Made by a program: the position numbers and the translations under genes
Notes under the pieces: model-generated
Told to the model about the DNA's origin: nothing
What the model saw: the letters and a program-made list of their open reading frames with translations, nothing else
The model's database searches: none
Virus record (IMG/VR): IMGVR_UViG_3300029288_000087
DNA: 64,000 bases
DNA from: an uncultured virus (IMG/VR IMGVR_UViG_3300029288_000087)
Taxonomy: Duplodnaviria; Heunggongvirae; Uroviricota; Caudoviricetes
Strand: one strand, 5' to 3'
Shown here: positions 1,843 to 55,700 of the stretch, in pieces
Layout: every line of letters starts with the position of its first letter
How positions within the stretch are numbered: position 1 is the first letter of the stretch

Positions 1843-2541
1843 ATGTCGCAGCCCCCGCCGAAGGTCGAAACGCCTACCCCTTCCGCCGATACCTTGAACG
1901 ATAGCCCAGCCGAAACAATTCCCGCTCCTTCGCCTGCGGAAGCGCCGAAAGATGAGCTTGAGGCAATGGCCGAAGGGTGCGAGGCCAACCTCTCGATCAT
2001 GGTGCGTGGGGGGACGAGCACCTACGCCCACGACATGGCCGAAAAGAAGCGCTGGGCGGAAGCCGAAGCGCGCCGCGACATGCTGGAGCGCTATCAGCAG
2101 ATCGCCAACACGCCCATCGAAAAGGGCGGCGGCGTCATGTACTCGAAGCAGTTCGCCGATCCGCTTTCGTCTCCGCGTGTGCTTCTTCGATACGTCAACT
2201 CGAAGAAGGAAACGCTTTGCGAGATGCTCTGCGAGCTGATCGAAAGCGACACGACGGGCGATCTCATCCTTCAGTTCGTGTGCCCGGAGTGCGTGAAGCG
2301 CGGCGTACACATGGATGCGGCGCAGTGCACGGTGCGAGACACGCACCGCAAGTGGTTCGTCGATACGAAGTGCACCGGGGAGATGCGCAAGGCAGAGACC
2401 GTGGACATGCGCGGGAACAAGATCCTGGAGCCGTATCTGCACGCCGGGGACATCGTGGACACGGAGATGCTCACCTGCGACAGGTGCGCGACGGCGTACA
2501 AGATCCACAAGAACATGCTTTACCGCGTATGGGGCAAGTGA
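1843..2541 (+). CDS. Hypothetical protein with two CxxC pairs (possible Zn-binding)
   Basis: CPEC and CDRC motifs; coupled to the next gene. Confidence 0.65.
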   Translation: MSQPPPKVETPTPSADTLNDSPAETIPAPSPAEAPKDELEAMAEGCEANLSIMVRGGTSTYAHDMAEKKRWAEAEARRDMLERYQQIANTPIEKGGGVMYSKQFADPLSSPRVLLRYVNSKKETLCEMLCELIESDTTGDLILQFVCPECVKRGVHMDAAQCTVRDTHRKWFVDTKCTGEMRKAETVDMRGNKILEPYLHAGDIVDTEMLTCDRCATAYKIHKNMLYRVWGK

Positions 2542-3887
2542 TGGGTCTCGAAGAGTTCATCATCGACGAGCAGTGCGAAGGCTCTATCGAGCAGCAGCTC
2601 GCAGAGCACGGCGACATGTGGAAGGAAGGGCGGGCCGCGAAGCACGAGCGAGGCATCGTCTACAAGGCCCCGTGGGAGACGCAGCACGACGGCGTGTGCA
2701 TCGCGGCGCGTCGGCATGCGCGCGCGCTCCGGATGACGGGCGTGCCGGTGTTCCTGCAATCGGACAGCTTCACCCACTCGAACCTGGGCGTTGTGTCGGA
2801 GGTCGAGTATTTCAGCCTCCCCGGGCTGGTGCGCGCGGAGGTGGATGGCATCACGCAGGTGGATCACGGACAGTCGCTTCTGCTCATCCGGCACTGCGTG
2901 CCGACGCGCGGGGCTCTTGAAGCTCTCGTCTATCCTCCCGTGATGCGGCTTCTGAACCATGAGCAGCTCACAGTGGTCCGCAAGGCGATGATCTTGTTCA
3001 GCGCGTTCGAGACCGACAAGCTCGACGAAGACGCCGTGCGGTACATGAACATGCTCGGGCGCGTCTGGGTAACGTGCGACAAGAACAAGCAGTGGCTCTC
3101 GGCAGCAGGCGTGGACGAGGCCCACATCGTTGTGGTGCCCCACCCCTTCTACGGCAAGGACCCGATGGCGCAGCCCAGGACTGGCAAGCGCACGGGACTC
3201 TTCAGGTTTCTCAACGTCTCGAAGTGGGAGCCCCGCAAAGCGCAGCACGACCTTATCGGCGGATTCCTGCTGGCTTTCGGCCCAGCCGATGACGCAGAGC
3301 TGGTCCTGAAGTGCAACCCGTTCGCACGCGTCGAGGGCTACCCCGCGGACTGGCAGGCCTCCATCGAGCAGTGGGCCGCGAACGAGAAGGTTTCCGCACG
3401 TTGGACCAAGGAGAAGATATACGAACGCGTAAAGGTGCTATGGAAAGCCCACATGACGCGTGCAGAGCTGGCGCAGCTCTACCGTGAGTGCGACGTGTAC
3501 GTGAGCACTGGGCGGGCCGAAGGCTTCGATTTGCCCGCATTCGACGCGAAGCTCTCGGGGATGAGAATGATCCATGCAGCGAGCGGCGGGCCTGAGATGT
3601 TTCACCAGCCGGGCGTGGATGTGCTGATCGATCCGACTGCGGAGACGCAGCCGTTCCACCCGATCTACAACGCCGCCCCGGATGCGAGGTGGTGTGGGTT
3701 CGACGCGACGCACGTGAGCCACGCGCTGATGGCTGCGTACGCGTGCTTCCGCGATCCGATCCCTGCGTTCGACCGGAGCAGGTACACGATGAAGGCAGTC
3801 GGGGCCGTGATGCGCCAGTCGTGCAACGAGCTTCTGAAGGAGCACGGTACGGACATCTCGAACGTGAACGTGGACGCCTCGCCATGA
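2541..3887 (+). CDS. GT4-like (GT-B fold) glycosyltransferase
   Basis: FLNVSKWEPRKAQHDLI and AEGFDLPAFDA motifs; likely start ATG 2541 overlaps upstream stop. Confidence 0.85.
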   Translation: MGLEEFIIDEQCEGSIEQQLAEHGDMWKEGRAAKHERGIVYKAPWETQHDGVCIAARRHARALRMTGVPVFLQSDSFTHSNLGVVSEVEYFSLPGLVRAEVDGITQVDHGQSLLLIRHCVPTRGALEALVYPPVMRLLNHEQLTVVRKAMILFSAFETDKLDEDAVRYMNMLGRVWVTCDKNKQWLSAAGVDEAHIVVVPHPFYGKDPMAQPRTGKRTGLFRFLNVSKWEPRKAQHDLIGGFLLAFGPADDAELVLKCNPFARVEGYPADWQASIEQWAANEKVSARWTKEKIYERVKVLWKAHMTRAELAQLYRECDVYVSTGRAEGFDLPAFDAKLSGMRMIHAASGGPEMFHQPGVDVLIDPTAETQPFHPIYNAAPDARWCGFDATHVSHALMAAYACFRDPIPAFDRSRYTMKAVGAVMRQSCNELLKEHGTDISNVNVDASP

Positions 3888-6428: not shown

Positions 6429-9400
6429 TCAGGTGACCCACTGCTCCGCAAACACCAGCATCACAGGGTCAGGTAGCTCGTCGGTGAACGTCTCGGAGAA
6501 GTTGGGCTTGGCTCTGCGCCTCACGATCGGCTGCTTGAACTTGGCAGTCTCCTGCTTCGCCTCCTCTTTGCTCTGCCACGCCCGCGAGGTTTGCTCTTCG
6601 TAGCTGCGGCCCGCCGGTATGCCGCCGTGCGCTTCCTGCGATTCCTCGAACTCCGTCTCCACCTCGGCGTACCTTTCGGCCTTCTTGCCAACGGCCATTT
6701 GCAGGCGTCGAGCCACCTCAACGTCGCCGACTTTCTCCTCGGCAAGCTCGCCGCGGTCCTTGAGCATCTGCGTCACGGTCTGTCCCCAGGCCTCGGCGAT
6801 GACATCTCGCATCCGCTCGGCGCTGTGCGCCGCCATGTCAGCAGGATGAAGCCGACGAAGTTCTTCTTCGATGGCGGCAGGGCAGGGCACGATGTACGCG
6901 AGCCATGCGTAGTAGTGCCTTCGGATCATGTCGTGATGCTCTTGAGCGTCGGGGCCACGCTTGCCCATGGCCTCCTTGTGACGCTCCCACAGGTTGCGAG
7001 CGATGCGCCGAAGGACGCACTCGGAATCGGTGCCGTGTCTGCGCCAGAACTCCTCCTTCGTCCGCATGTCGTGAACGATGGTGTTCTGCTCATTGAACGT
7101 GAGGTACCCCTCCTCGAACATCCGCGCACGGAGGACTCGTGACGGCTTGACGGCCCCTGGCGCACTGATGTCGATGCCGTGTTTGCTCTTCAGGTACATC
7201 GTGAGTCGCTCATCGTACTTGAGAGGAGCGTGGCGAGGCCTACCCTCTTTGTCGATCTCTTCCATCATCTCCGTAGGCTCTTCGAGCGTCGGGTGCTCTT
7301 CCCGCGCCTCTGCGATCGCTTCGTCCTGTTCCATCCCCTCTTGCATCTTGGCGTCGATGTCCTGCTGTATTCTGGCAAACGACGCGTCCGCGGCTTTGCC
7401 GACGATCTCGTAGATACTGATCGGAGGGATCTTCACCCCTGCCCCAAACCTGTCCTGCTTGCCGGTCTCCTCCTGGAATTTCTTGTCCAGTTCCGCCATT
7501 TGCTTCTTGGCGGTGTCTCGCGCGCTCGTGTCGAACTTGAACTCGTGGTAGTAGTCTCCCCACACCTGTAGCCAGTTCACGAGGTCGTCGATCGCAACCG
7601 TTGTGCGCATGACGCTGGGGCGGATGCCTTGGAGCTGCTCGATCCACTTACGCATCTGCGCGCGCTCTTCTTCTGGCAGTGAGAGCAGAGGGTCTCGATC
7701 GAAGAACCACTTCGGCAGATCGCGCATCGCGGCGAGAGCGGGGTAGCTCGTCTCCTTCATCTGCCCCCAGGTTGTGGCATCTGCCCACTCGATGGCTTGC
7801 AGGAACCCCTCGTCGATCTTGGCGCGGTGCTCCTGCCTGATCGCCACCATGCCGCCGGAATACATCCCCACCGTCGCATGCCGCCAGTCTGGTCTGCCTA
7901 CGCCCTCACCCTTCTTCTTGGCGACGCCCATGAACTTGATCTCTCGACCGGGCTGGAAGATGACACGGTTCTTCTCCGTGTCGTCCACACGGAAGCTCCG
8001 CGTGTCGATGCGTGTGGCGCGCTCGGTGAACGGGATCCAGTTGTAGGGCCTGCGAATGAGCGGCTGCACGGCCATGTCGCCGTGGACCGCAAACCACTCC
8101 ACGATCCTTTCGGCCATGTGTTCGCGAACGATCCCAAGCTCCCCGGGCGAGGCGCTAGCCTTGAAGTCAATCCACTTGTCCCCGCGCTTGACCATGATCG
8201 ACTGGAACTGCTTGGACGCAACGGTCGTGATCTCCGTAATCCAGGCGACCAGCGCCAGCGCAGCCGTGGGGCCCTTCTCGTTCCAGAAGCGCTTGTAGAG
8301 GTTCTGGAGCCCCTTGAGTACGTCCCAGTTCGGTTCGGTCTCGGGCTGCGTCTGGAAGTGGCTCAGAATGGGAGCCATGTCCTGCTCGGCCCAGGTGTTC
8401 TTGCGGCCCGCCCACCACGGTAGCCTGGAGGTGTGTCCAATCCGGTAGGTGAGTACGGCTCCCTGTCCCTTGGGCACGTCATGGGGGTCCATGTGGACTT
8501 CCGGCAGGTAGAGCCTGAGCTTGTCCACGCCGGTCTGGTACGCCCACTCGGGGCTCTTGAGCGGCTTGTCGGAGACGGCGATTCGCTCGCGGCGCGGACG
8601 CTGTTCTTCCCCTGGCTGCTGCCCCACGAACGGCGTAGGCACTTTGCGCCCCTCGGGCTCGGAGGCGATGATGCGCTCGTCGTCGAGCGGGCTCCCGCGC
8701 CGCCTGTGCATCCGCTGCGCTTCCTCGGTGGACATCACATCGCCCTTCTCCGCCTTGGCGATGTACGCGCCGATGATCACAACGGAGTCGGGCTGGATGT
8801 GCACGTAGCCCTCGGTCGTCTTGATGCTCTCGTGCCCGAGCAGCGCTTGGATCTCGTCCAGGGGCATCCCCGCTTCCCTGGCGCAGGTGGCCCCGTAGTG
8901 CCGGAAGTTGTGGGCGTGGATCCGCTTGCGCTCGTCAGCGTTCAGACCCCGCTGCATCCCGCTCTTCACTTCCACAACGCGCGCTCGTTCCGCCAACGCG
9001 TAGAGCATGCGCCGAAGCCCGCTCGTATCCAGCGGCTCCAGGGCCGTCTGCTCCGGTTGCCCGTCGCGTTCGTTGGTGCCCCAGCGGACCAGCGACGGCA
9101 CGATGGGCGCATTGGGGTTGGTCATCAGAGCTGCGCAGTACCTCGCCCAGTGCGACGGTTGAAGCTCGCCAGTCTCGGGATTGACTTCGTTTTCTTGCGC
9201 TCGCTGCCGAAGGCCTTGATCGAAGGCGACCATGGCATCGCGGATCTCGCTGGACAACGGGATCTCGCGCGTCTTGTCGCCTTTGCCGCTGCGGATGCTC
9301 AGGGTGAGCAAACCGTTCTTCTCGTACAGATCCTTTCGCAGGGCTCCGACAAGCTCCTCGGATCGAAGGCAGGCGTGTGTGAGAAGGTAGAGAGCAAGCG

Positions 9401-10334
9401 TGTCCCGGAGCGATTCGAGGTTGGGACCGGCGGCGGCGCGGAAGATGGACTTGCGGAGAGGGTGGGTGAGCATCACCTCGCGCGCCGCGCGCTTGCGCTC
9501 CTCGCGGGCTCCACGCAGAGCGATTCGGGCGGGTTCCTTCCACACGTTGACGCGAAGCGGTGCTTCTCCGTGCGGCCCTGCGTCCCCCTTGAGCATCTCG
9601 CTCCAGATGGCGCTCAGGCCCGACAGGTACGTCGCGATCGAGCCCATCTTGATCGAGGCTCGCTTCTCGGGCACCACGTAGCGGTAGACCATCGGGTCGC
9701 GCTCCTTGCGCGTCCAGATGCGTCCCTGCTCCTTGCGCACTTCGATGCTCCTCGGGAGTCGGTACATCCATCGGTAGTCCCGGATGAGCATGCCCAGGCG
9801 CTTGTGCAACTGGGACAGGTCGTCGGTCCCGTCAGGCTTCTTGGGAACGAACTTGGCGCGCGTGGCGGGCGTGAGCATCTCGTAGATTTCGAGGATGTTC
9901 ACCTGTCTGCCTCCGCGGGATGCCTTCTCGACGGCGCTGTAGATCATCCACGAGTCCATGCCGCTGGCCCGCACGATCATGCCTCGGATGTCGGGCGGAT
10001 CGGTGCTGCGCATCCACTCGTACAGCTCCATCGCGACCCGGCGCGTGACCTCGTCCGGGTCCAGCTCCCTGCCGAACTTCGCCCTCATCCAGTAGGTGAA
10101 AATCTCCAGCGACTTGAGGTACACGCGGATCGTGTTGGAAGCGTCCTGGGGCTTGTTGCGGAGCCTGCGCTTGCCTCGGAGATCCTCGCGCCGCACGCCC
10201 TTCGCGCTGTCCTTGAGACGAGAGACGAGCCGCTGGATCGCGTCCACGTACTTGGACTGCTGATCGACTTGGGAGTCCTCGAAGTACCCGAGTGCGTCGG
10301 GGCGGTTCGGGCGCGTGAGATCGAAGTCAGACAC
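6429..10334 (-). CDS. Very large tyrosine recombinase/integrase (1301 aa) with long C-terminal extension
   Basis: Intact catalytic set: CLRSEEL (R), GKGDKTR (K), HNFRH (HxxR), LLGHESIKTTEGY (H, Y); N-terminal core-binding-like NTIRVYLKSL and SIATYLSGLSAIW. Confidence 0.9.
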   Translation of the reverse strand: MSDFDLTRPNRPDALGYFEDSQVDQQSKYVDAIQRLVSRLKDSAKGVRREDLRGKRRLRNKPQDASNTIRVYLKSLEIFTYWMRAKFGRELDPDEVTRRVAMELYEWMRSTDPPDIRGMIVRASGMDSWMIYSAVEKASRGGRQVNILEIYEMLTPATRAKFVPKKPDGTDDLSQLHKRLGMLIRDYRWMYRLPRSIEVRKEQGRIWTRKERDPMVYRYVVPEKRASIKMGSIATYLSGLSAIWSEMLKGDAGPHGEAPLRVNVWKEPARIALRGAREERKRAAREVMLTHPLRKSIFRAAAGPNLESLRDTLALYLLTHACLRSEELVGALRKDLYEKNGLLTLSIRSGKGDKTREIPLSSEIRDAMVAFDQGLRQRAQENEVNPETGELQPSHWARYCAALMTNPNAPIVPSLVRWGTNERDGQPEQTALEPLDTSGLRRMLYALAERARVVEVKSGMQRGLNADERKRIHAHNFRHYGATCAREAGMPLDEIQALLGHESIKTTEGYVHIQPDSVVIIGAYIAKAEKGDVMSTEEAQRMHRRRGSPLDDERIIASEPEGRKVPTPFVGQQPGEEQRPRRERIAVSDKPLKSPEWAYQTGVDKLRLYLPEVHMDPHDVPKGQGAVLTYRIGHTSRLPWWAGRKNTWAEQDMAPILSHFQTQPETEPNWDVLKGLQNLYKRFWNEKGPTAALALVAWITEITTVASKQFQSIMVKRGDKWIDFKASASPGELGIVREHMAERIVEWFAVHGDMAVQPLIRRPYNWIPFTERATRIDTRSFRVDDTEKNRVIFQPGREIKFMGVAKKKGEGVGRPDWRHATVGMYSGGMVAIRQEHRAKIDEGFLQAIEWADATTWGQMKETSYPALAAMRDLPKWFFDRDPLLSLPEEERAQMRKWIEQLQGIRPSVMRTTVAIDDLVNWLQVWGDYYHEFKFDTSARDTAKKQMAELDKKFQEETGKQDRFGAGVKIPPISIYEIVGKAADASFARIQQDIDAKMQEGMEQDEAIAEAREEHPTLEEPTEMMEEIDKEGRPRHAPLKYDERLTMYLKSKHGIDISAPGAVKPSRVLRARMFEEGYLTFNEQNTIVHDMRTKEEFWRRHGTDSECVLRRIARNLWERHKEAMGKRGPDAQEHHDMIRRHYYAWLAYIVPCPAAIEEELRRLHPADMAAHSAERMRDVIAEAWGQTVTQMLKDRGELAEEKVGDVEVARRLQMAVGKKAERYAEVETEFEESQEAHGGIPAGRSYEEQTSRAWQSKEEAKQETAKFKQPIVRRRAKPNFSETFTDELPDPVMLVFAEQWVT

Positions 10335-30038: not shown

Positions 30039-30416
30039 CTACTTGCTCCCTTCTCCCTGGCCGACATGTGCCCGCAAGCGCAGGAGCGTCCACCCTGCGG
30101 ACTTGCGGCCTGAGTATCGGCGACCATCGATCATGGTCGCAAAGCACTGCACCACGACGGGGCAGTACGCGCCCGGAGGGTGAATGCGGTAGCGCCCAGT
30201 CAGAGCCAGCGGCGCAATGATCTTGTCGCCAGCCCAGTTCTTGAGCACAAACCGCCCGCCCTCCTCGCAGACGTGGCCGATGACCACGCCTTGGGTATGA
30301 TCCACAACCGGGCCGATAGAGGAGAACTGCGTCCCGTTGTGTTCAACGAAACCGATCTCCACCTGCGCTCCGGTCGCGGTCACACCGCTTTCGGAATGAA
30401 AGGTTGTCTTGTCCAT
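30039..30416 (-). CDS. Array gene 6, hypothetical (MDKTTFHS...)
   Basis: Leader motif. Confidence 0.75.
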   Translation of the reverse strand: MDKTTFHSESGVTATGAQVEIGFVEHNGTQFSSIGPVVDHTQGVVIGHVCEEGGRFVLKNWAGDKIIAPLALTGRYRIHPPGAYCPVVVQCFATMIDGRRYSGRKSAGWTLLRLRAHVGQGEGSK

Positions 30417-30722: not shown

Positions 30723-31883
30723 CTAGGCGGCGAGCGCTTGGGAGAAAATCTTGCCCGCGAACCGTTCCAGGTCGAGCACGTCGTCGCCGATCTGCGCCGA
30801 GCGTGCCTTGCGGGGCGCACCAGCGAGTGCCTTCGCCTCGATGTCCTGGCTGAGAGCCGACACGGCCTGCGCCGCATCGAGCCAGGAGATGCCCTTGCCG
30901 AGCGTGTGAGGCACGCGCGGGTCGGCGCTCTGCACCATTTCGACGACGCGCTTCGCCATGTCCTGGGAGACCTGACCCTTGAGGATCGTGTTCAAGCGGT
31001 CCACGGTCAGTTCCTTCTCACCCGCCGCGTTCAGCGAGTCGAACATCGACTGCCGCCGCTCGGGCAGAAGGAACTGCGATGTGCTGTCCTTGATCATGCT
31101 GATGGTGGCCTCGTGGTCGAGCTTGCGCGTGTCTTGCGACCAGTCCACGTCACGGTCGAGCCGCTGCCCGAGATGCACGCGGCGGAAGATCCGCTCAGTC
31201 GTCATCCCGTTCATGCAGGCCAACCGCAGGAAGAACGCCGTGATGCCCGCTGCCGTGCCGCCCCAGTCCGAATTGCGATACTCGATTCCCAGGACGTAGG
31301 GGTCGCCGCCGACCATCTGCACCTGCGGAATGACCATCTTGATCGCGAACTGGAGATCCGTGCCGGTCGCTGAGAACGGGACCGCGCCCGACTTGTCAGA
31401 GACTTCCAGCACGGTTTCGAGCAAGGGGCGGGTGTCGATCGTGTTGTAGCTGGCGGAGAGAACCGCCATGCCCAGTTCCACGTCGGGCTTCTTGCGCGCG
31501 CGCACGAGGTGAGCCGGGGGCCTGCCGTCCTTGCCGACAAGGTGCGCCCAGTCCGTGTTCAGCACGTTCTGCAAGAGGTCGCGCGCCCAGTCCGTGTCAG
31601 CGTCCAGGCAGGCGTTCGCGAAGTTCGCGTTCACTACCTGACCGATGCCGTACACGTGGCTGAGAGCGTGGTCGTGCAGCACGAGCGTATCGTGCTTGTC
31701 GAGCACCATCTGGACGTTGTTGTCCTGCGTGACCGCGAACTCCACAAGCTCCGCGGGCGCTTTGCGGTCCACCGGCATCTCGCTGAACACGCGCGCGACT
31801 TGCGCCTTCGCGTTCGGGAGGTTCCGATGGATCACTTCGTCCAGGCGTGCCGCCGCCTGTTCTGCCGAAACATTCTGCATCAT
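30723..31883 (-). CDS. Array gene 4, DUF932-like protein
   Basis: VLSASYNTID, RNSDWGGTA, FLRLACMNGM, RRVHLG motifs. Confidence 0.75.
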   Translation of the reverse strand: MMQNVSAEQAAARLDEVIHRNLPNAKAQVARVFSEMPVDRKAPAELVEFAVTQDNNVQMVLDKHDTLVLHDHALSHVYGIGQVVNANFANACLDADTDWARDLLQNVLNTDWAHLVGKDGRPPAHLVRARKKPDVELGMAVLSASYNTIDTRPLLETVLEVSDKSGAVPFSATGTDLQFAIKMVIPQVQMVGGDPYVLGIEYRNSDWGGTAAGITAFFLRLACMNGMTTERIFRRVHLGQRLDRDVDWSQDTRKLDHEATISMIKDSTSQFLLPERRQSMFDSLNAAGEKELTVDRLNTILKGQVSQDMAKRVVEMVQSADPRVPHTLGKGISWLDAAQAVSALSQDIEAKALAGAPRKARSAQIGDDVLDLERFAGKIFSQALAA

Positions 31884-32444: not shown

Positions 32445-32741
32445 TCAACCGACCCGCTTGGACGCGCCAGCGGTTTCCATCTCCGCCACCAGTGCGCGCA
32501 CCGCAGCGTCGCCACCCTTGTCGCTGTAGACGTGGTGCGGACGCCCGATGCGCCCCTCGAAGTCCCACCCTTCGTAGCCGTCGCGGCGCGCGAAATCGAT
32601 CCGCGTTCCGTCTGCGCGTTCCAGGTAGAACTCTCCGAAGCCCATGTGATGCAGGGTTCCGAAGCGGTTGCAAGCGTTCAGGAAGTCGGAATCCCCGACA
32701 ACCTTCTCGCTTCCATCAATCTGCTTGATCGTGTGAGGCAT
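32445..32741 (-). CDS. Array gene 2, hypothetical (MPHTIKQI...)
   Basis: Leader motif. Confidence 0.75.
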   Translation of the reverse strand: MPHTIKQIDGSEKVVGDSDFLNACNRFGTLHHMGFGEFYLERADGTRIDFARRDGYEGWDFEGRIGRPHHVYSDKGGDAAVRALVAEMETAGASKRVG

Positions 32742-32812
32742 TGACTTGTGCTCCTGCTTTGAGAGGCGGCACCATACCGCCTTCAGTGCGTACGCGGGCG
32801 CGTACGCGAGGC

Positions 32813-33160
32813 TCAGTCCTCTGCGGTCTCTGGACGGGAGAACGGAAGCTGGTGACAGCCGCAACCGTGCGGGCAGCACCATGCTTCCTTGAAGTCGTTT
32901 GTGCAGTTTCGGAGGCGTTCCGCTAGCTCGTAGATTTTGTTCGCCAGGGTTTCGTTGCACAAGCAATCGGCCCCGCAGAGCGCACGCTGGTAGCGGCGTT
33001 CGTCAAAATCAGTCCGAGCGTTCCACCTCGGATGGAAGTAGCCACCGGAGCTTGCTTTCCATTCCGCGTACACCACAAGCAACCACTCGCGCGGCTGATC
33101 GTGAATGTTCTCGTACAGGTCAGCGTATGCCTCCGGTGCGTGAGACCATTCGCATGTCAT
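32813..33160 (-). CDS. Array gene 1, hypothetical (MTCEWSHA...)
   Basis: Leader motif. Confidence 0.75.
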   Translation of the reverse strand: MTCEWSHAPEAYADLYENIHDQPREWLLVVYAEWKASSGGYFHPRWNARTDFDERRYQRALCGADCLCNETLANKIYELAERLRNCTNDFKEAWCCPHGCGCHQLPFSRPETAED

Positions 33161-33197
33161 GGTTTGCTCCTGCGCTGTGCTGACGGAATTGTCAGCG

Positions 33198-33328
33198 GTC
33201 GGTACCCGGGAATCGAACCCGGATCTCGCGGCACCAGTTACGGTGTCGCGTGACAGCTTGCTCCTAGGCGCGTCAAACGCACCATGCCCGGCGGTCAGAT
33301 GCCCCGTCAGGCCTTTTGGCTATACCGA
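33198..33328 (-). ncRNA. tRNA-like RNA with expanded anticodon region (not a canonical tRNA)
   Basis: Acceptor TCGGTAT/GTACCGA, mini D-arm GCC-AAAA-GGC, stem TGACGG/CTGTCA enclosing ~50 nt, long variable arm, T-arm CCGGG-TTCGATT-CCCGG; no encoded CCA. Confidence 0.7.
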
Positions 33329-33329
33329 T

Positions 33330-34260
33330 TTTGAGGTTGCTGGCGACAGGTTGACTATTGTCGCCAGAGAGCCCCTGCCCACGTCTTAGCGTGAGCGGCA
33401 GGAGCAGGAGCGGGATCTACTTCCCCCACCACGCTGGTATGCCCAGTCACGGGCGCGTGATGGTTTCGGAACCTGCCTGGAAGCCGTACGGTCAAAAGCC
33501 CCGGGCTATCATGCGGCAGGCTCGCGCAGCTTGGAGCAGCGCGACGATCCAAAATGTCATCCCCGTTGAATTCGATTCACGTTGCCGGTTCACCTCAGTA
33601 GCAGCGGTCCGATTTGGCATGCGTCCCCATGGACAGCCGCGGACTTGCTTGCCCCCCGTCAAAGACAAGGGGCTGAGTTTACCCGGTACGCGGGATAGTA
33701 GCTCTAGCCGGAACGGAATCTCTCCCGTGGCCCGCGGGTATCAGCCGCAGCGCCCTGCGCGTAGGACGGCTCAGGCGATCTGAGGGACGGAGCCCAGAGG
33801 CGCAGTCACGCCGCACGGTACGCCGTGCGGTTAGGCGAGCACCGCTTGTCCGTTCGCTTGTCGGTTCCGCTTGCTAGTCTTGCTTCAGGCGTTCACGGAT
33901 CCAGGAGTCCACGCGAGACCTTGAGCCTTACCGAGCCGCCAAAAGCGACCCCTATACGCGCCGGTCCGAACGGAAACCTGCCCGGTTCCCTGGTGAGGGG
34001 AGGACTTGCGCGCCCCAAATGCTGGCGCAGCAGCGGTCACATGGGCCGGGTAGACCCGTGGCAGCCATCCGCTCGACTAGCGCGCGTTGCCGCGTCGCAA
34101 TCGGGGCAGATGTTGCCCTATTGCTTGCAGGGTACGCCCCGCAAGGCTGGCGTGGTCCGGTCAAGGGCACCGGCTAGGCTCACCCCACAACAGGCAGGCT
34201 CGCCAGGGGAGCCGCCCCGCCAACCGGGGCCGCGCTCCACCCTGTTGTTGTCCTGCACCC
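33330..34260. ncRNA. Putative large structured non-coding RNA region
   Basis: No convincing ORF over ~0.9 kb in an otherwise packed genome; many inverted repeats; contains the split match to the array leader motif; strand unresolved. Confidence 0.55.
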
Positions 34261-34279
34261 CACCCCCTCCCCTCCTATA

Positions 34280-34350
34280 CGTGGCGATAGTGTTTCGCTA
34301 TCAGCGCGTACAGGGGGTACATCGTGGCGATAGTGCACTGGTATAGTGTA
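34280..34350 (-). promoter_or_regulatory. Repeated CGTGGCGATAGTG boxes (34280-34292, 34323-34335; partial ATAGTG near 34343): candidate promoters/operators of the ncRNA-array unit
   Basis: Exact 13-bp direct repeat in an AT-richer patch; minus strand reads CACTATCGCCACG. Confidence 0.5.
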
Positions 34351-34451
34351 TCGTATTGCAGCGTCACGCGGTGTATTGTGAGGTGGTGTGATGTATCGCT
34401 GGAGCTTGCTGTCCAGCTTGGGAACGGAGCGCGCAGGGAGCGCGTGCGACG

Positions 34452-34904
34452 CTACCGCGTGCGGCGACGGTGCGAACGGCTACGGTTTGGCGTGGCCTTG
34501 CGCCGGGCGGCGAACCAGATGCCTGCTACGGCCAGCGCGACGGCTACCGCAACGTAGACCTTGCCGTACGGTTCGCAGCCGGAACCGTAAAGAGCGGGCA
34601 GGGCCAGCAGGGCGGGGCACTGCTTGCCGTGCGATGGCGCAGGTTGCGCGGGCTTCGGGGGCTGCACAGACCCCCACGGCACGCATCTGCTCAGCTTTGG
34701 ATCCCACCTCTGATCTGGTGCGAGGCAACCTCCCTTGCCGCCGTTCGCACCGCACGCGTCCATGAAGGCGTTCAGCGCAGAGCCCTTTGTCATGTCGAAG
34801 GGGATGCTCAGCGCCTGGGCCTGCTGCGCGCAGTCAACAGCCATCGTCGTGGCGGCATCCGCTGGAAGCGCGGCCATCTGCTTGTAGAAGTCTTCGTAGG
34901 TCAT
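34452..34904 (-). CDS. Cys-containing protein with C-terminal TM helix and basic tail
   Basis: VYVAVAVALAVAGIWF followed by ARRK...RRRTR; GATAAT 5 nt before ATG. Confidence 0.65.
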   Translation of the reverse strand: MTYEDFYKQMAALPADAATTMAVDCAQQAQALSIPFDMTKGSALNAFMDACGANGGKGGCLAPDQRWDPKLSRCVPWGSVQPPKPAQPAPSHGKQCPALLALPALYGSGCEPYGKVYVAVAVALAVAGIWFAARRKATPNRSRSHRRRTR

Positions 34905-36550: not shown

Positions 36551-39500
36551 CTAGATCATGTCGTCGCTCGGCAGGCCCCCAAGCCAGTCAGGCAGCTTGC
36601 AGGCATGGGCAACGCAGTAATCGTACGTGAGATCGCGCTGGATCTGCGTCGGTGCCTTGTCCCCGCAGAACACGAACTGTGCGTTGTCCAGCAGCATGCT
36701 CGTGCAGAATTTCAGCCAGCCATCCGCCGCAAGCCCATCTTCCGTGCTCCCCAGAGCCCCGGCCAGGGCGATGTGCTCGTGATAGCGGCAGCGGTAGAAT
36801 TTTCCCTCCGGGGAGAGCCAGCCCGTGTCCGAAGTCACCGCGTTCTCTGCGGGCGGGAGGGGGAAGCTAGGGGGATCGTCTTCTTTCTCGACCGGCTCTG
36901 CGGGCAACTCCGCCGCAGACGCGCCTTTCGGCCCTTGTGCAGGACTGCCGCTCCGCGCGTCGAAAGGCGGCGGGCACTGTTGCCAGTAGGGCAGCGTATC
37001 GTAGTCGTAGGGCTCCTTGATTATCGGATGGTGCACTAAGGAGCCTCCGCTCCCCGCTTTTCTTTGTGGGATCTTGCGCTTCCCTGTAGGGCTTGCGACG
37101 TACTCCACGTCTCCGATCAGAAGCTGAATCAGGTCTGCTTCGCCGTCTCTCGCCTTGTCCCGCTCCTTCATGAGTCTGGCGAGCACCGCGGAGAGCTTGG
37201 GCAGCGGCTGCCCGTGCACGGTGGTCGTCGCATCGTCGGGCACCATCTCGATGCTGTTTTCGCGGCTGTCCCCAACGAGCTTCGCTTTGCCTTCAAGGAT
37301 CTCGATGGCCTGCGCCAACGTGATCCCCTGGAGCCCGTCCATGAGCGTGCGGAGCGCGTGATCGGGGCGATCCTCTTCGGCCCACAGATTTCGGACATGC
37401 TGCGTGAGCCATTCCCCGTCGATGGAAAAGCACAGCGTGTATGTCTCAGCTCGTGCTGCGTTATCGCTCTTGCCTCCCACAACTGCCCCCTCCTCTACCA
37501 GAACATCGCCCGCACGAGATACACGATCCCGCCCAGCAGCCCCGTAGCGACGAACAGGCAGACGGCTGCCAGAATGCCGAGACTTCTCCTGGTCACGCGC
37601 CGATCAAGCTCGGGGTCCATCCCCTCGAACACCCTATCGAAGAGCCTGATCGCGAGCATCGGCTCGTTCCGCATCGCACGGAACATCGTGTCGCGCAGGA
37701 CTTCCTTGTTGACCAGAATGCCGCGCCGGTCCACCCACGACTCCAACGCCACGATGTTGCCCGCGCGCACCAGGGCTCGTCCCTCTTCCAGCTCTGCTTC
37801 GGTCAGCTTCATGGCTCTCCCTCTCCCTGCATCCCATGCACTTGCACCACGTCCACGATCTCGACGGACATGAAGCACCTCTGCATCTCTTCGCTGTTGT
37901 CCAAAGCGTTCTGCACGCACTCCTGCACGAAGCTCAACGTGCTCTCCGTCATCCTGGGCACCCGAATGTTCACGGTCACTTCCACGAGAGGATCGCTCAC
38001 TTCTTCACCGCCCCGCTCGTAGCCTTGTCTGCCAGACGGATCGCCTTGTCCAACAACCGGAGGGCATCGTCGCGTTCCTTCCTGAGCACATCGACCATTT
38101 TCTCGTGGATGTCGTTGAGCGCAACGACGCGGGCCTGCTCTGTGGCAAGCTGGGCGCGAAGTGCGTCGATCCGCTCTTGGTCCAACTCTCTCACCAAACA
38201 CACGGAGCAGCGTCCTCCGTTCGGCTGATCCATCCTATGTAGGGTCGCGACGGTGTGCCCGCAGCCGTGGCAGAAGTATTGCGCCTGGGTGATCATGCGC
38301 CCAGCATAACCACGCGAGCGCCCCGCCGTCAATACGAACGTGTAAAAGAATCAGGATCTCTTCGCCGCCCGCCACGCAGCGAATGCGGCGAGGCCAGCCA
38401 GCGCTGCGATCAGCATCTCATCCCACCAAACAGCCAGGAAGACCAGCGCGGCATCACCGCCACGGTTGCGCGCGAGCTTGCGTTGCCTCACCACGCCGTT
38501 TTCTCCCAGTCCTCACGCGGCTTCTCGGGCGCTCCCGTGAACAGCACCGACACGAGAAATCCAGCCACCAAGATCCCGCCCACAACGAGCAGGGCGACCG
38601 GCATGTCGCCGAAGTCGGGCCTGACGGGAACGAGGTCGCCCATCCACCCAGCGGTTGCGCGCGAAGGGAGAGGTCCACCCTTGCCGCACGGGCAGGGCTG
38701 CTTGTAGGGAGGAAGCTGGCTCATGATCGCTCCTACAGGTCTTGCCAGTAGATTTTGCCAACATCGTCGGCATAAATCTCACGCAGAGCCACTTCCTCCT
38801 GCTCCATTTTTGTCACGACGATGAGGTGGGTGACAGGGATGAGATACGTGAGAATGCCGATTGCTGCATCCTGGGCCTCGTTGAAGCTGCTGAACTTCTT
38901 GGACTCCCAGCCGGTTTCCTTCATGGTTCTCTCGTTGATCGCAACGAGCCAACACGACCCGGTCCCGGGGAAGTCGTAGGTGGGTGCCCGGTGAGCCCAC
39001 TTCCATCCTGAAGGCAGGCTGGCGACGTTTCTTCGGGCGGCTCCATGTCTCATGGATCCGGATCCTACATCCAGATCCCGGGTTCTGTCACGGATCTCGA
39101 TGCCCGCAGTACCGACAGCGCATCTTCGCGGCGTAGGTGACCGCTGAGTAGAACCGGGTGCGGTACAGGCCCTTCTTCCCGCACTTCGGGCACACCTCGA
39201 ACCGCTCGCCCTTCTTCACCCGCACGCAGTCGGTGACGATCGGTCGTGCATCTCCACGATCGCATCGTGAGCAGTGGGCGACCTCCCCTACAACGGGTCT
39301 TCGAGCCATCAGGTGTCCGACCTCGTGTCCGCACTCCAGCACCAGCCTACCGAGCCCGACCTTGCGCCCGTGGTTGTACACGCGGTTCTTCCTTGCAACG
39401 ATCTTGCGCAGCATCGGCACCTTCAGGAAGGGAGGGTGAACTTCCCCATGGACTTGAAGTCTCCATTGGTCTGGATCACGCCCATCAGCACGTCCCCGTG

Positions 39501-52762: not shown

Positions 52763-55700
52763 CGCAAAGCCCACGTGGCTCCTCCGCGTCGAGATGCAGC
52801 ACGCTGTCTTCGGTATCATCGTTGCGGCAGACGGCAGCGTGATGGAAGCCGCGCCCATCGCGAAGTGGTCGGTGGGTAAACGAGGTCGGGAAGTCGTTCG
52901 GTACTTCAGGGAGCGGGGAGCGACGGTAACGGTGCATGGAGGGAAGTAGTCGATGAGCGAGAAGCACGTAAAGATCGTCCGAGCAGTCCGGGACCAGCTC
53001 AAGGCCTACGGCGTCAACAAGGACGAGAGCCTGCGTGACGCTATCGATCGGCTCACGGCTGAGCACGCGCTCGCGACCGATGAAGCGCGCACCTACAAGA
53101 GGCTCACGGAGGAGGCGCAGCAAGAAGCTGCCCTGGCCCGCAAGACGCGTGACGAGGCAGAGGCAACAGCGATCGTCGCGCTGGCGAAGGAGAGAGCTGC
53201 GACGTTCCAGAACCGCGCGCTGCGAGCGTTCCTTGATCTGGTCATCGAGCGCAGCGGCGCGCAGATCCAGAAGGACTACGCGGGGGCCCTGGCGGAGATC
53301 GATGCGCGGAGCAAGACCATCGCGAAGGAAGCGGGCACGACCCGGCTGGAAGACGACATCCGAGAAGTGGAAGCCCGACGCGTGACGGCGTTCGCTCAGT
53401 CGATGCAGGGGAAGTCGTTCGACACCTACGGGAATCCGCTACCAAACGGCGTGCTTTGTAGAAAGAGGGACTCGTATCTCGACGACTGCCTCGCCCCGAA
53501 CCCGAAACATCCTGGCGCGAATTGCCATCGTCCGAAGACGCACGGTGGCCAGCACCAGAACGGGGACGACGTGTGGGGCGATGAACCTGAAAGCAGAAAG
53601 GCAGGTGCGTGATGCCCTGGTGCTACGCAACGTCCAGAGAAGCCGAAGCATGGAACGGAAACTTCGCGACGCGGGAAGAGGCGATCGAGGAGGGAACTCG
53701 CGAGTACGAGGGCGACGCTGATCATTTCTTCGTCGCGTGCGGCGAGTGTCCGGACCCGGCTGATGCCATGCCCCGAGCGCTCGACATCATCGAGATGATG
53801 GTGGAGTGTGCTGGCGACGAATGGGGCGAGATCGCGGAGGACTGGCCCGAAGTCTCTAAGGAAGAGGAGAAGGAACTGGACGACATCCTGGAGGGATGGG
53901 CACGCAAACACTGCCGCATCTCGTTCTTCATGGTGGATGGCGACAAGGCAGAGGAGGTGCGCATCGCGAAGGCAGAGGAGCCGAAGCAACCGTGAGCGCG
54001 CGGCAAGAGAGGATGGTCGAAGCCAGACAGCGCCTCGATGACGCGATCGGCGCGCTCTCCGACCTGTACGAGTACGGCCACCTGCTCGCCCAGACCGAGC
54101 CCGACAAGCTCCTGATGCTGGCTGTTGAGGAGATCCGAAAGGCGCGGGACGAGAAGCGCAACGAGAAGAAAGGCACGCGAACACATGGACGATGATGCTG
54201 CCAACAAGACTCCGGAGCCCGCTCCGTTCGTCTGCCCATACCACAGGCCGTCTCCACCCTGGACATGGCGCGACACCGTAGGGGTGCTGCTCCTGATTGC
54301 CGCTGCGACCGTGCTCACCATCGGCATGTATCACGTCGAAAAGCTGAGCGAGCACTACTGGATCATGTCGGCCTACCTCACGAAGCCCATAACGCTGTAC
54401 TCTTACCGTGGACATCGTGAGTGGGTAGATCGGGATCGGATCGAGAAGTCCGACGCGGACGACTACGGCCAAGCGTACAGGGAGGGGTACCACGACGGCA
54501 AGGGCATGTGCGTGGCCGCGTACAAGAGGACGAAGAGCCCAACTGCGCTCTGGGTCTCGACGGGTTGCATCGACGCCTGCGCTGCCATGCGCAAGGCGGG
54601 GGCTCACGACATGAGTGCACAGACGCCCGGACATGCCTGCGAGTTCTTCTGCGAGGCGGGCAACGAGCGGGGCTACGACGATCCGTGGCCGGTTGCGTGC
54701 TTCCAGCGGGCGAAGTCGCAGCAGGATGTCCACGACTGCTGGATCGGGGCGGAGAAGAAACAATGACCAGGATGGCTCACCACGAAGAGTGTGGCATCTG
54801 CCACAGCGACCACATGTGCGAGCACAGGCTTCCGAAAGTCGAACCTCGCCCTCCGAGCATCTGCCCCCTGTGCGGAGAGCCGATCAACCCGCTCGACGAG
54901 ATCGAGACCGATCGGGACCGCCTGATGAGGGCAGCGCCCGGCTGCACCACCGATGGGTGGATCGCTCACAAGAGCTGTGTCACCAAGGCGGGCACGTGAC
55001 CACCCCCAAGACAACGTGCGGGACATGCGGCGGTGACTACCCAGTCGGCTCGACATGTCCTAGCTGCGGTCCCCACAACCCCGGAGCGGCGCTGTTGGGC
55101 GCTCTCCGCGGGCACGGCAGTGGCTTGGCACCCGATCCGTTCGAGCAGGCCGAAGCGTGCCCGTACTGCGACATCAAGGACCAAGTGATCAAGGCTGCTG
55201 GCGAGCAGATCGAGGCTCTCGAACAGAAGCTCGCTGACGCCGCTGCTGATCGCGACAGGAACGCATCGTCCGTCGAGACACTGATCCGCGAGATTGGCTA
55301 CAACCGCGTGCTACCGTATGGAGATGTGGGCGCTGCCGTCGAGTACGCCCGCGGGCTGCACGCGAGGATCGCATCCGACGCAAGCGACAACGCCAGATTG
55401 TGCAATGCCCTCAACCGGGACAAGACCGGGCTGGCGCAGGCGCTCGTGGATGTCCTGACTGAAGCCAGGGGTCGTCGCTGGCTCGGGCCAGAAGGCGGGT
55501 GGGGCTCGTACGAGTGGCAGGAGCACACGACGGACACGCTGCGCAAGGAGATCGAGTGGGCCCTGGACGCCATCGAGACGATCGCGAAGAAGGCGCTCGC
55601 CACGTCGGGCGCGCTCGCGACGGAGACGCTTCGGCTCACAGCAGAAAAAGCCCGCGCGATGTGCAGAACGGCGGTAGACATACCCAGCCGCTACGGCATG

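Follow-up and report, generated by a model that had tools for sequence, protein, structure and literature searches.

We analysed a 64,000-nucleotide (nt) stretch of DNA, referred to here as the window, from the uncultured virus IMGVR_UViG_3300029288_000087. The window is part of a 134-kb contig in an assembly of 205 contigs. On its minus strand, a 131-nt element that resembles a transfer RNA (tRNA) closes a long gene-free leader on the strand of the downstream genes, which form an array of small genes. Judged from its sequence, the element is best described as a tRNA-derived, non-decoding RNA module. We tentatively propose, while giving the idea somewhat less than an even chance, that it is a punctuation signal at which RNase P and a 3' nuclease would detach the leader from the early messenger RNA (mRNA). 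The best explanation of its composition appears to be that the half formed by the acceptor and the T-arm has been retained together with a long arm of the tRNA-Ser type, and that the D and anticodon regions have been replaced by a diverged copy of a unit of the array, consisting of a hairpin (hairpin A) plus a ribosome-binding site (RBS).

In the mechanism that we envisage, the leader and the array of ~17 genes would be transcribed as one minus-strand RNA. The type-A RNase P of the host would cut 5' of U33328, and a 3' tRNA-end nuclease (RNase Z, or RNase E with exonucleases) would cut at or just after C33198. This would free a leader RNA and leave an mRNA that starts at hairpin A, a potentially protective 5' stem-loop, followed by the RBS. 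We infer transcription and cleavage, and a possible effect on stability or translation, from the features described below.

Structure and folding of the element

All of the sequence features named in a first-pass annotation of this DNA are present on the minus strand between 33328 and 33198 (Table 1). The acceptor helix has 7 base pairs (bp), of which one is U.G and the other six are Watson-Crick pairs. It stacks directly on a T-stem of 5 bp that carries a TTCRANN loop, as in a canonical tRNA. The T-arm is identical to the tRNA consensus. In place of an anticodon arm there is either a 6-bp stem, TGACGG/CTGTCA, that encloses 47 nt, or a hairpin of 9 positions with a 6-nt loop. The long hairpin in the position of the variable arm, annotated earlier as 10 bp, consists of 4 + 4 bp around an A.C mismatch. 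As the first-pass annotation had stated, the acceptor lacks the Ala-type pair (position 3-70 is G3-C70 instead of G3-U70), and the element has no CCA, since C and G come after the discriminator C33198. Neither a pseudoknot nor a tag module was found in the 131 nt; the insert contains a short readable frame, GCA...TGA, with nothing that backs a role as a tag.

The minimum free energy (MFE) of the 131 nt is -55.9 kcal/mol (z -1.88), a value equalled by 12 of 200 shuffled sequences. This fold retains the acceptor, the T-arm, the long hairpin and the inner hairpin, all of which have robust pair probabilities in isolation, and omits the TGACGG/CTGTCA stem. The cloverleaf proposed in the first-pass annotation is nearly isoenergetic when its helices are enforced (-55.4 kcal/mol, 0.5 kcal/mol above the MFE), but its TGACGG/CTGTCA stem is predicted with a probability of just 0.15-0.19. 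The 9-mer AGGAGCAAG, a copy of a sequence found at the starts of the array genes, is predicted to be mostly unpaired in the isolated fold (unpaired probability 0.6-0.99). The proximal 570 nt of the leader fold better than shuffled sequences on both strands (z -3.06 and -2.43). No excess folding was found on either strand of the distal leader at 33690-34300 (z -0.66 and -0.22).

Relatives and the boundary of the leader module

To place the element among related sequences, we used a run index in which, with the probable source run excluded, four runs of four studies hold parts of 32700-34500. These derive from lake water (X2), sediment, freshwater (X4) and a soil RNA library (X5), and the parts of the stretch that X2-X5 leave uncovered are no evidence of absence. 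The leader recurs in pieces, with 84-99% identity, in contigs of these four runs. At neither end of the stretch was coding DNA matched by a contig of at least 80% likeness. Identity in two other metagenomes is 97-98% for the element, and for the next gene it is 88%.

One X2 contig covers 33197-33465 (269 nt; 6 substitutions, 1 insertion) and runs on below 33197 for 150 nt that are unlike the window. A second X2 contig carries the 115-aa first array gene with its hairpin A (32912-33196; 35 differences in 285 nt) and is unlike the window above 33196, and a third matches the distal leader at 33441-33651 (14 substitutions and 3 insertions in 211 nt). A contig of X4 matches 33197-33270 with 2 differences in 74 nt and is likewise unlike below 33197. 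Because similarity stops at 33197 in X2 and X4 and the gene match in X2 starts at 33196, we take the element to be part of the leader module. In two independent relatives, the boundary of this module thus lies 1-2 nt past the tRNA-like discriminator. The unlike X2 sequence after the element is built like another unit's linker and hairpin A, and what precedes hairpin A on the X2 contig with the gene is built like an ordinary hairpin B, the distal hairpin of the units. The array units in the X2 relatives stand in a different order, so cassettes seem to be exchanged at the linker/hairpin A boundary. From these comparisons, the array is a mosaic whose cassettes run from hairpin A through the linker after hairpin B.

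The element is the least diverged part measured in X2. It has two placed changes (33231 and 33269), or 2-4 in 131 nt when two unplaced changes are counted, compared with 17 of 211 in the distal leader and 35 of 285 in the gene. When 2 changes are taken, Fisher p values for this lower divergence are 1.3e-4 against the gene and 0.013 against the distal leader. Predicted pairs survive three of the four changes placed in the X2 contig that covers the element (at 33269 and 33429, U.G becomes U-A; at 33412, G-C becomes G.U), and the fourth, 33231, falls on the A.C mismatch of the long hairpin. This is weak structural evidence because these are transitions in a relative that is 98% identical.

Searches elsewhere gave little. 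A single 22-nt chance match to the DNA of 33100-33450 was found in the family's 13 genomes. For the 115-aa protein (93 genomes of its class) and the 1.27-kb leader (93 genomes of its phylum), nothing matched outside their own genome. Phage records gave a single unrelated 162-nt coding match and plasmids none. In viral contigs there were no matches to the 24-nt 3' end of the element, a 19-nt RBS unit or a 23-nt conserved block of the leader, and in metagenome contigs there were none to the 22-nt 3' end or the 23-nt leader block. The proteins encoded at 30723-31883, 34452-34904 and 36551-37480 had no relatives in viral contigs; genome contigs gave one spurious 8-residue match. No tRNA-like element lies upstream of the three distant (30-32%) viral homologues of the 115-aa protein. 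T-arm motifs occur elsewhere in two of these three viral records.

Likeness to tRNA-Ser and expectation by chance

The segment 33245-33222 is identical at 21 of 24 positions to the variable arm and 5' T-stem strand of the genome's tRNA-Ser(GCT), which is encoded on contig C35. This likeness has a local score of 33, which none of 300 mononucleotide shuffles reached, each scored as the best of 50 tRNAs, and it ranks first among 615 consecutive 104-nt windows of the strand, the next scores being 31 and 30. The other 15 array units scanned have tRNA-likeness scores of 19-30. The margin is modest, and we therefore regard the likeness as support for tRNA ancestry and not as proof of it. Together, the likeness to tRNA-Ser, the location in a gene-free leader on the strand of the array genes, and the pattern of conservation argue for tRNA ancestry and for a function, independently of the T-arm motif.

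For the motif itself, we searched both strands of the 3.57-Mb bacterial assembly for a strict T-arm (5-bp stem with ≤1 G.U, loop TTCRANN, G-C closing pair) and then for closure, defined as a 7-bp complement with ≤1 G.U located 25-230 nt upstream of the T-arm. There are 74 such T-arms, 47 within tRNAs called by ARAGORN with default settings and 27 outside them. Closure is present for 45 of the 74; 42 of these are ARAGORN tRNAs, and the other three are the element and one site each on contigs C116 and C9. Closure occurs at 7.9% of 200,000 random genome positions. Coding-like frames hold 13 of the 27 non-tRNA T-arms but none of the three with closure. The closed sites on C116 and C9 both lie shortly upstream of a gene start on the same strand.

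On C116 (minus strand, 2217-2088 and 2085-1990), two tRNA-like elements, one of 130 nt and one of 96 nt, stand in tandem between a pair of phage-type genes, and the next RBS follows ~30 nt later. They have 8-bp acceptors, TTCGACT T-loops and a D-arm, GCGTG/CACGC, with GG in its loop. The 130-nt element has three extra hairpins, like the element at 33198-33328. The 96-nt element is reported by ARAGORN as 'tRNA-?(ca)' and its loop holds TTCAT; a UCA anticodon, which would read UGA, is conceivable. Neither had a match in Rfam. On C9 (plus strand, ~53540-53630), there is a 78-nt tRNA-shaped fold with the acceptor GACGGTG/CACCGTC, GG in the D-loop and the T-loop TTCAAAT. It is enclosed by a further stem of ~8 bp, lies just upstream of a gene (z = -5.3) and is called by neither ARAGORN nor Rfam.

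Searches with tRNA and RNA-family models

With default settings, ARAGORN found no tRNA and no transfer-messenger RNA (tmRNA) in the whole window, and none of 4227 Rfam families matched at gathering scores. A search of 601 nt at E ≤10 gave three weak Rfam rows, none of them tRNA or tmRNA. The best was mascRNA-menRNA (RF01684; 15.4 bits, E 3.3), on the T-arm and part of the acceptor. Because the gathering score of this family is 42.5 bits, we place the element outside it. In the whole assembly, the Rfam tRNA model (RF00005, gathering score 29 bits) gave 49 matches at E ≤10 and the tmRNA model (RF00023) gave 14 at E ≤0.001, with none of either on the element. The genome's own tmRNA is on contig C74 (132.7 bits), and the other 13 RF00023 matches are weaker. 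The tmRNA mode of ARAGORN was silent on the element, and its relaxed mode returned only unrelated candidates upstream. The first-pass annotation had predicted that these programs would report no canonical isotype, and this is borne out by the default mode of ARAGORN and by the tRNA and tmRNA models of Rfam.

A standard intron-containing or pseudo-tRNA, with no conservation of the inserted motif, had been named as an outcome that would refute that annotation. With introns allowed, ARAGORN made one call in the 1.6-kb region, a tRNA-Val(aac) at 33328-33197 whose D-arm is poor and whose 57-nt 'intron' falls at position 31/32. We give this call little weight because the same mode reported 19 introns in this bacterial genome, of which 4 are ≤100 nt long. 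We regard an intron-containing tRNA as improbable, since the 'intron' is at 31/32 and not at 37/38, the D-arm is weak and no group I intron was matched in Rfam.

Other known classes were also rejected. A canonical tRNA does not fit since there is no G18G19 in the D-loop, no 5-bp anticodon stem with a 7-nt loop, and the detectors are silent. The acceptor pair and the silence of both tmRNA searches exclude a tmRNA. For YrlA or another bacterial Y RNA, there is no Rfam match and no long closing stem; a Ro/TROVE domain was found in none of 89 window and contig proteins (47 + 42) scanned in Pfam. Elements of this kind escape tRNA finders, which calls for caution among annotators.

Leader, array and surroundings

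The region 33161-34451 has all three kinds of stop codon in all six frames and no periodicity of GC content at third codon positions (GC3), and it is a real gene-free leader of 1.3 kb. Stop-codon recoding and a hidden gene in the leader were rejected on the same grounds. We also considered an N-terminal extension of the 115-aa gene from CTG 33256, which would give an open frame of 168 aa. It was rejected because the spacing from AGGAG is just 4 nt, homologues of the protein start at ATG and, by our estimate, an open frame of 53 codons is common at 62% GC.

The array of ~17 small genes of unknown function extends on the minus strand from 33160 down to ~24900. Ahead of each gene come one or two hairpins rich in GC, then a linker of ACCAAC type, a second hairpin and AAGCAGGAGCAAGTCAATG; no promoter consensus was found in the units. 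Before the first gene, the order after hairpin A (33196-33179) is ACAGC-GCAGGAGC-AAACC-ATG. The 9-mer AGGAGCAAG has 12 matches in the window, all on the minus strand, with 0.54 expected, and among the copies checked that of the element alone has no ATG, GTG or TTG behind it. The insert of the element reads GGCATGGTGC-N13-AGGAGCAAG, which parallels GGCATGGTGC-N11-AGGAGCAAG in the unit before the gene at 30416. Because of this parallel, the 'expanded anticodon region' of the first-pass annotation looks like a diverged array unit of hairpin A plus RBS. The annotation had also placed the whole element in the slot of hairpin A. This does not hold, since hairpin A persists one base past the 3' end of the element, and in an alignment of 17 units the T-arm and GTACCGAC line up with the distal hairpin B and GCACCAAC. 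Several units have an extra hairpin ahead of hairpin B.

A viral contig with a 32% homologue of the 115-aa protein has a conserved unit before successive small genes (2540-3005). This unit differs in sequence, with a hairpin GTTCGGTTACCGAAC followed by CAAACGAAAGGACAGC-ATG. A layout of hairpin plus fixed RBS may, on these sequences, be a shared habit of this phage group.

Two further observations concern the leader. In GCTCCTGCTCCTGC, the first complement of the RBS core GCAGGAGC is predicted to be unpaired in the local fold (0.81) and the second to form a hairpin with GGCAGGGGC. The head of the leader (34279-34360, minus strand) has two copies of CACTATCGCCACG ~40 nt apart and a related GATACACTATACC. 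The CAATACGATACACTATA found there is reminiscent of promoters of single-subunit phage RNA polymerases; no polymerase of this type was recognised among the proteins scanned.

The genes near the element are mostly on the minus strand and mostly without a known family. Recognisable proteins include helicases, a ParB-like protein, a DNA methyltransferase, an HNH/RRXRR protein and a DUF2786/DUF7168 protein. A 1301-aa open frame on the minus strand (6429-10334) matches phage integrase families at residues 228-518, and the remainder of this protein had no family match. None of the proteins scanned around the element was recognised as a member of a capsid or tail family. We call these surroundings a phage-like mobile element.

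Table 1. Positions in the window of the tRNA-like element, its parts and adjoining features
Feature	Position	Strand	Remarks
Whole tRNA-like element	33198..33328	minus	131 nt, counting the discriminator C33198
Acceptor, 5' strand TCGGTAT	33322..33328	minus	Pair probability 0.8-1.0 in isolation, 0.07-0.25 in longer context
Mini hairpin GCC-AAAA-GGC	33311..33320	minus	In D-arm position, without G18G19; pair probability ~0.4
TGACGG, proposed 5' strand of 'anticodon' stem	33304..33309	minus	Pairs with CTGTCA; probability 0.15-0.19
Inner hairpin GGTGCGT-TTG-ACGCGCC	33267..33283	minus	Pair probability 0.83
9-mer AGGAGCAAG	33257..33265	minus	Copy of the array RBS 9-mer; no ATG, GTG or TTG behind it
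CTGTCA, proposed 3' strand of 'anticodon' stem	33251..33256	minus	Complement of TGACGG
Long variable-arm-like hairpin CGCG-A-CACC GTAACT GGTG-C-CGCG	33227..33250	minus	Pair probability 0.87
T-arm CCGGG-TTCGATT-CCCGG	33206..33222	minus	Pair probability 0.98-0.99 in all contexts tried
Acceptor, 3' strand GTACCGA	33199..33205	minus	Abuts the T-arm without a gap
Hairpin A of the first array unit, GCTGAC-AATTCC-GTCAGC	33179..33196	minus	Context, outside the element
RBS GCAGGAGC and ATG of the first array gene (115 aa)	33158..33173	minus	Start in accord with that of three distant homologues
Gene-free leader upstream of the element	33329..34451	minus	Mixed stops in six frames, no GC3 periodicity
GCTCCTGCTCCTGC, two overlapping complements of the RBS core GCAGGAGC	33398..33411	minus	In the leader

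Weighing of the proposed signal and its alternatives

Of the functions suggested in the first-pass annotation, separation of a noncoding RNA from an mRNA is the best because the element lies at the boundary between the leader and the first mRNA cistron. The genome has the enzyme for the proposed 5' cut, since an RNase P RNA of type A is encoded on contig C66 (276.7 bits). The element offers RNase P a 12-bp stack of acceptor and T-arm, preceded by CAACCTCAAAA as a single-stranded 5' leader. The missing CCA is no obstacle because only 12 of the 50 tRNA genes of the assembly encode it.

Several points weigh against the proposed cleavage. RNase P has preferences for the context of the cleavage site and for a 3' RCCA. 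Here the RCCA that would pair with the P15 loop is absent, the tail being C-C-G, and the bases at the cleavage site, U+1 and A-1, are not ideal. The probability of the acceptor falls to 0.25 when the leader is included from 33420 and to 0.07 from 33560, that is, with 90-230 nt added; the hairpins persist in these longer folds while the acceptor gives way to alternative pairings. The count of three non-tRNA sites with T-arm and acceptor compares with ~2.1 expected among 27, and the motif alone is therefore indistinguishable from chance. The only relatives of the element are close ones, with 97-98% identity. Because the array is a mosaic, low divergence of the element could reflect a recent exchange of modules and not selection. 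In X4, only 11 contig letters are left above 33270, so that the 5' half of the element is beyond coverage. The contig from the soil RNA library, the only match from such a library, covers 33709-33945 only (6 differences and 1 gap in 237 nt), misses the element and may be carried-over DNA.

The element could instead be a dead pseudo-tRNA, in which a phage tRNA gene with a long, Ser-like arm was broken by a recombined piece of an array unit and now decays without a role. The resemblance of the long hairpin to tRNA-Ser and the parallel between the insert and the unit upstream of the gene at 30416 would both follow from such a history, as would the lack of a D-loop GG and of a 7-nt anticodon loop, the silence of the Rfam tRNA model and the fact that ARAGORN accepts the element solely as an intron-containing tRNA. 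A decaying relic would, however, hardly be expected to be the least diverged part measured in X2, to keep its acceptor and T-arm intact, or to stay with the leader in two relatives while the downstream cassette changes, and we consider this explanation rather unlikely. We also judge it unlikely that the whole likeness is coincidental, with two ordinary distal cassette hairpins and a conserved ACCRAC linker to which TCGGTAT happens to be complementary. The alignment of the T-arm with hairpin B, the further hairpin before B in several units, the frequency of closure at random positions and an MFE z-score of merely -1.88 are all in line with coincidence. On the other side, no other unit has a 7-nt TTCRANN loop with a G-C closure, the likeness to tRNA-Ser tops all 615 windows when other units score at most 30, all three closed sites are outside coding-like frames, and the element travels with the conserved leader and not with the cassette.

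The first-pass annotation also suggested a sponge or switch, in which a processed mimic would show a copy of the RBS and, by titrating or competing with an anti-RBS guide in the leader or with ribosomes, would set translation of the array. That AGGAGCAAG is otherwise limited to the starts of array genes and is mostly unpaired in the element is compatible with this, as are the two overlapping GCAGGAGC complements 130 nt upstream in the leader, the first of which pairs with AGGAGC of the element in one MFE structure of 571 nt. But the complementarity to the element's copy is just 6 nt, and the pairing probability of the first copy with AGGAGC is 0.05 in a 321-nt ensemble. Duplexes of the anti-RBS GCTCCTGCTCCTGC reach -20 to -29 kcal/mol with RBS units and -22.8 kcal/mol with the element's copy, compared with a mean of -17 and values down to -37 kcal/mol for background 34-nt windows of the same strand. 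We therefore rejected the guide pairing as a statistically special interaction, and a sponge or switch seems improbable. Similarly small is the likelihood that the element works in DNA and not as an RNA signal, as an attP-like site or a fixed anchor for cassette swapping. Tyrosine integrases often target the 3' ends of tRNAs, in two runs from separate studies similarity breaks exactly where the tRNA-like sequence has its 3' end, and the 1301-aa protein with its phage-integrase domain is encoded in the same mobile element. However, homologous exchange between units with conserved linkers and hairpins explains the break equally well, no tRNA of the genome has the 3' end of the element, that end had no match in the metagenome collection (22 nt) or in viral contigs (24 nt), the integrase gene is 23 kb away, and an att site does not need a 5' acceptor strand. 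A combination is a similarly long shot: in DNA, the 3' end of the element would be the point of insertion and exchange for hairpin-flanked early-gene cassettes, in an integron-like manner and perhaps through the large tyrosine recombinase, and in RNA, a cut by the host's tRNA-end enzymes would release a conserved leader RNA of 1.2 kb with an anti-RBS repeat that could target the RBS common to all cassettes.

Comparison with known systems

The proposed punctuation signal resembles the type II tRNA-Ser, with which it shares a 7-bp acceptor, a 5-bp T-stem with a TTCGATT loop, and a long arm identical at 21 of 24 positions. By contrast with tRNA-Ser, it has neither a D-loop GG nor a 5-bp/7-nt anticodon arm, its first pair is U1-A72 and its discriminator is C. 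As in the tRNA-like domain of tmRNA, the acceptor and T-arm are accompanied by a D region that is reduced, and a large insertion takes the place of the anticodon arm; unlike tmRNA, the element has G3-C70, is just 131 nt long and is passed over by the detectors.

In T4-type phages, small early genes that are shuffled are reportedly flanked by promoter-early stem-loop (PeSL) cassettes, said to have been described by Arbiol and colleagues in 2010. The likeness is in context only, namely a hairpin-bearing regulatory unit at each small early gene and exchange of modules there. Here, each unit has two hairpins and a fixed RBS, and no promoter consensus was found. We know of no counterpart of a tRNA-like leader end in the PeSL context.

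Another phage parallel is the C4 antisense RNA of P1 and P7, reportedly the subject of work by Hartmann and colleagues in 1995. RNase P is said to excise this RNA of ~77 nt, which has a tRNA-like acceptor end, from the leader of the operon that it controls; it is said to carry antisense loops and a CCA-like end, and its targets to overlap the downstream RBS. The CI RNA of P4 is a leader-derived phage RNA of the same kind. The element described here differs from C4 RNA in that it carries a sense copy of the RBS and not antisense loops. At E ≤10, neither C4 nor any other Rfam family was reported beyond the three weak rows.

We found no paper on tRNA-like punctuation of phage early leaders in full-text literature searches judged from listings and abstracts. 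Such punctuation would mean that a virus borrows the tRNA maturation of its host to punctuate an early transcript and gives its first mRNA a protected 5' hairpin. With the sites on C116 and C9 as two further elements in the same assembly, there is a hint that tRNA mimicry recurs in phage gene expression in a role not yet described.

Section 5.4 of PMC4919922 describes cleavage by RNase P of tRNA-like structures in mRNAs, long noncoding RNAs and phage regulatory RNAs. The non-tRNA substrates that this section lists include polycistronic mRNAs, C4 of P1/P7, the t-element of plant mitochondria and MALAT1/mascRNA (PMC4919922). The t-elements are tRNA-like structures in mitochondrial mRNA precursors (Forner et al., 2007, PMC1920247; PMC4919922), and in MALAT1 and MEN-beta a tRNA-like module at the 3' end of a long noncoding RNA is cut by RNase P and RNase Z, so that the long RNA is parted from the sequence after it (PMC4919922). 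As in the t-elements so described, a non-decoding tRNA-like fold stands beside a coding transcript, and cleavage by tRNA-end enzymes, proposed in our case, defines mRNA ends. Our element differs in being of phage or bacterial origin, in its 131 nt and in its embedded RBS-like unit, and its cleavage is a prediction. With MALAT1/mascRNA it shares a tRNA-like module that ends a long noncoding RNA, and mascRNA-menRNA is the only Rfam family with any signal on the element; mascRNA, by contrast, comes from eukaryotes, and no mRNA lies downstream of it. Cleavage by RNase P and a 3' nuclease, if it takes place, would make the element a phage or bacterial counterpart of the organellar t-elements and of MALAT1/mascRNA.

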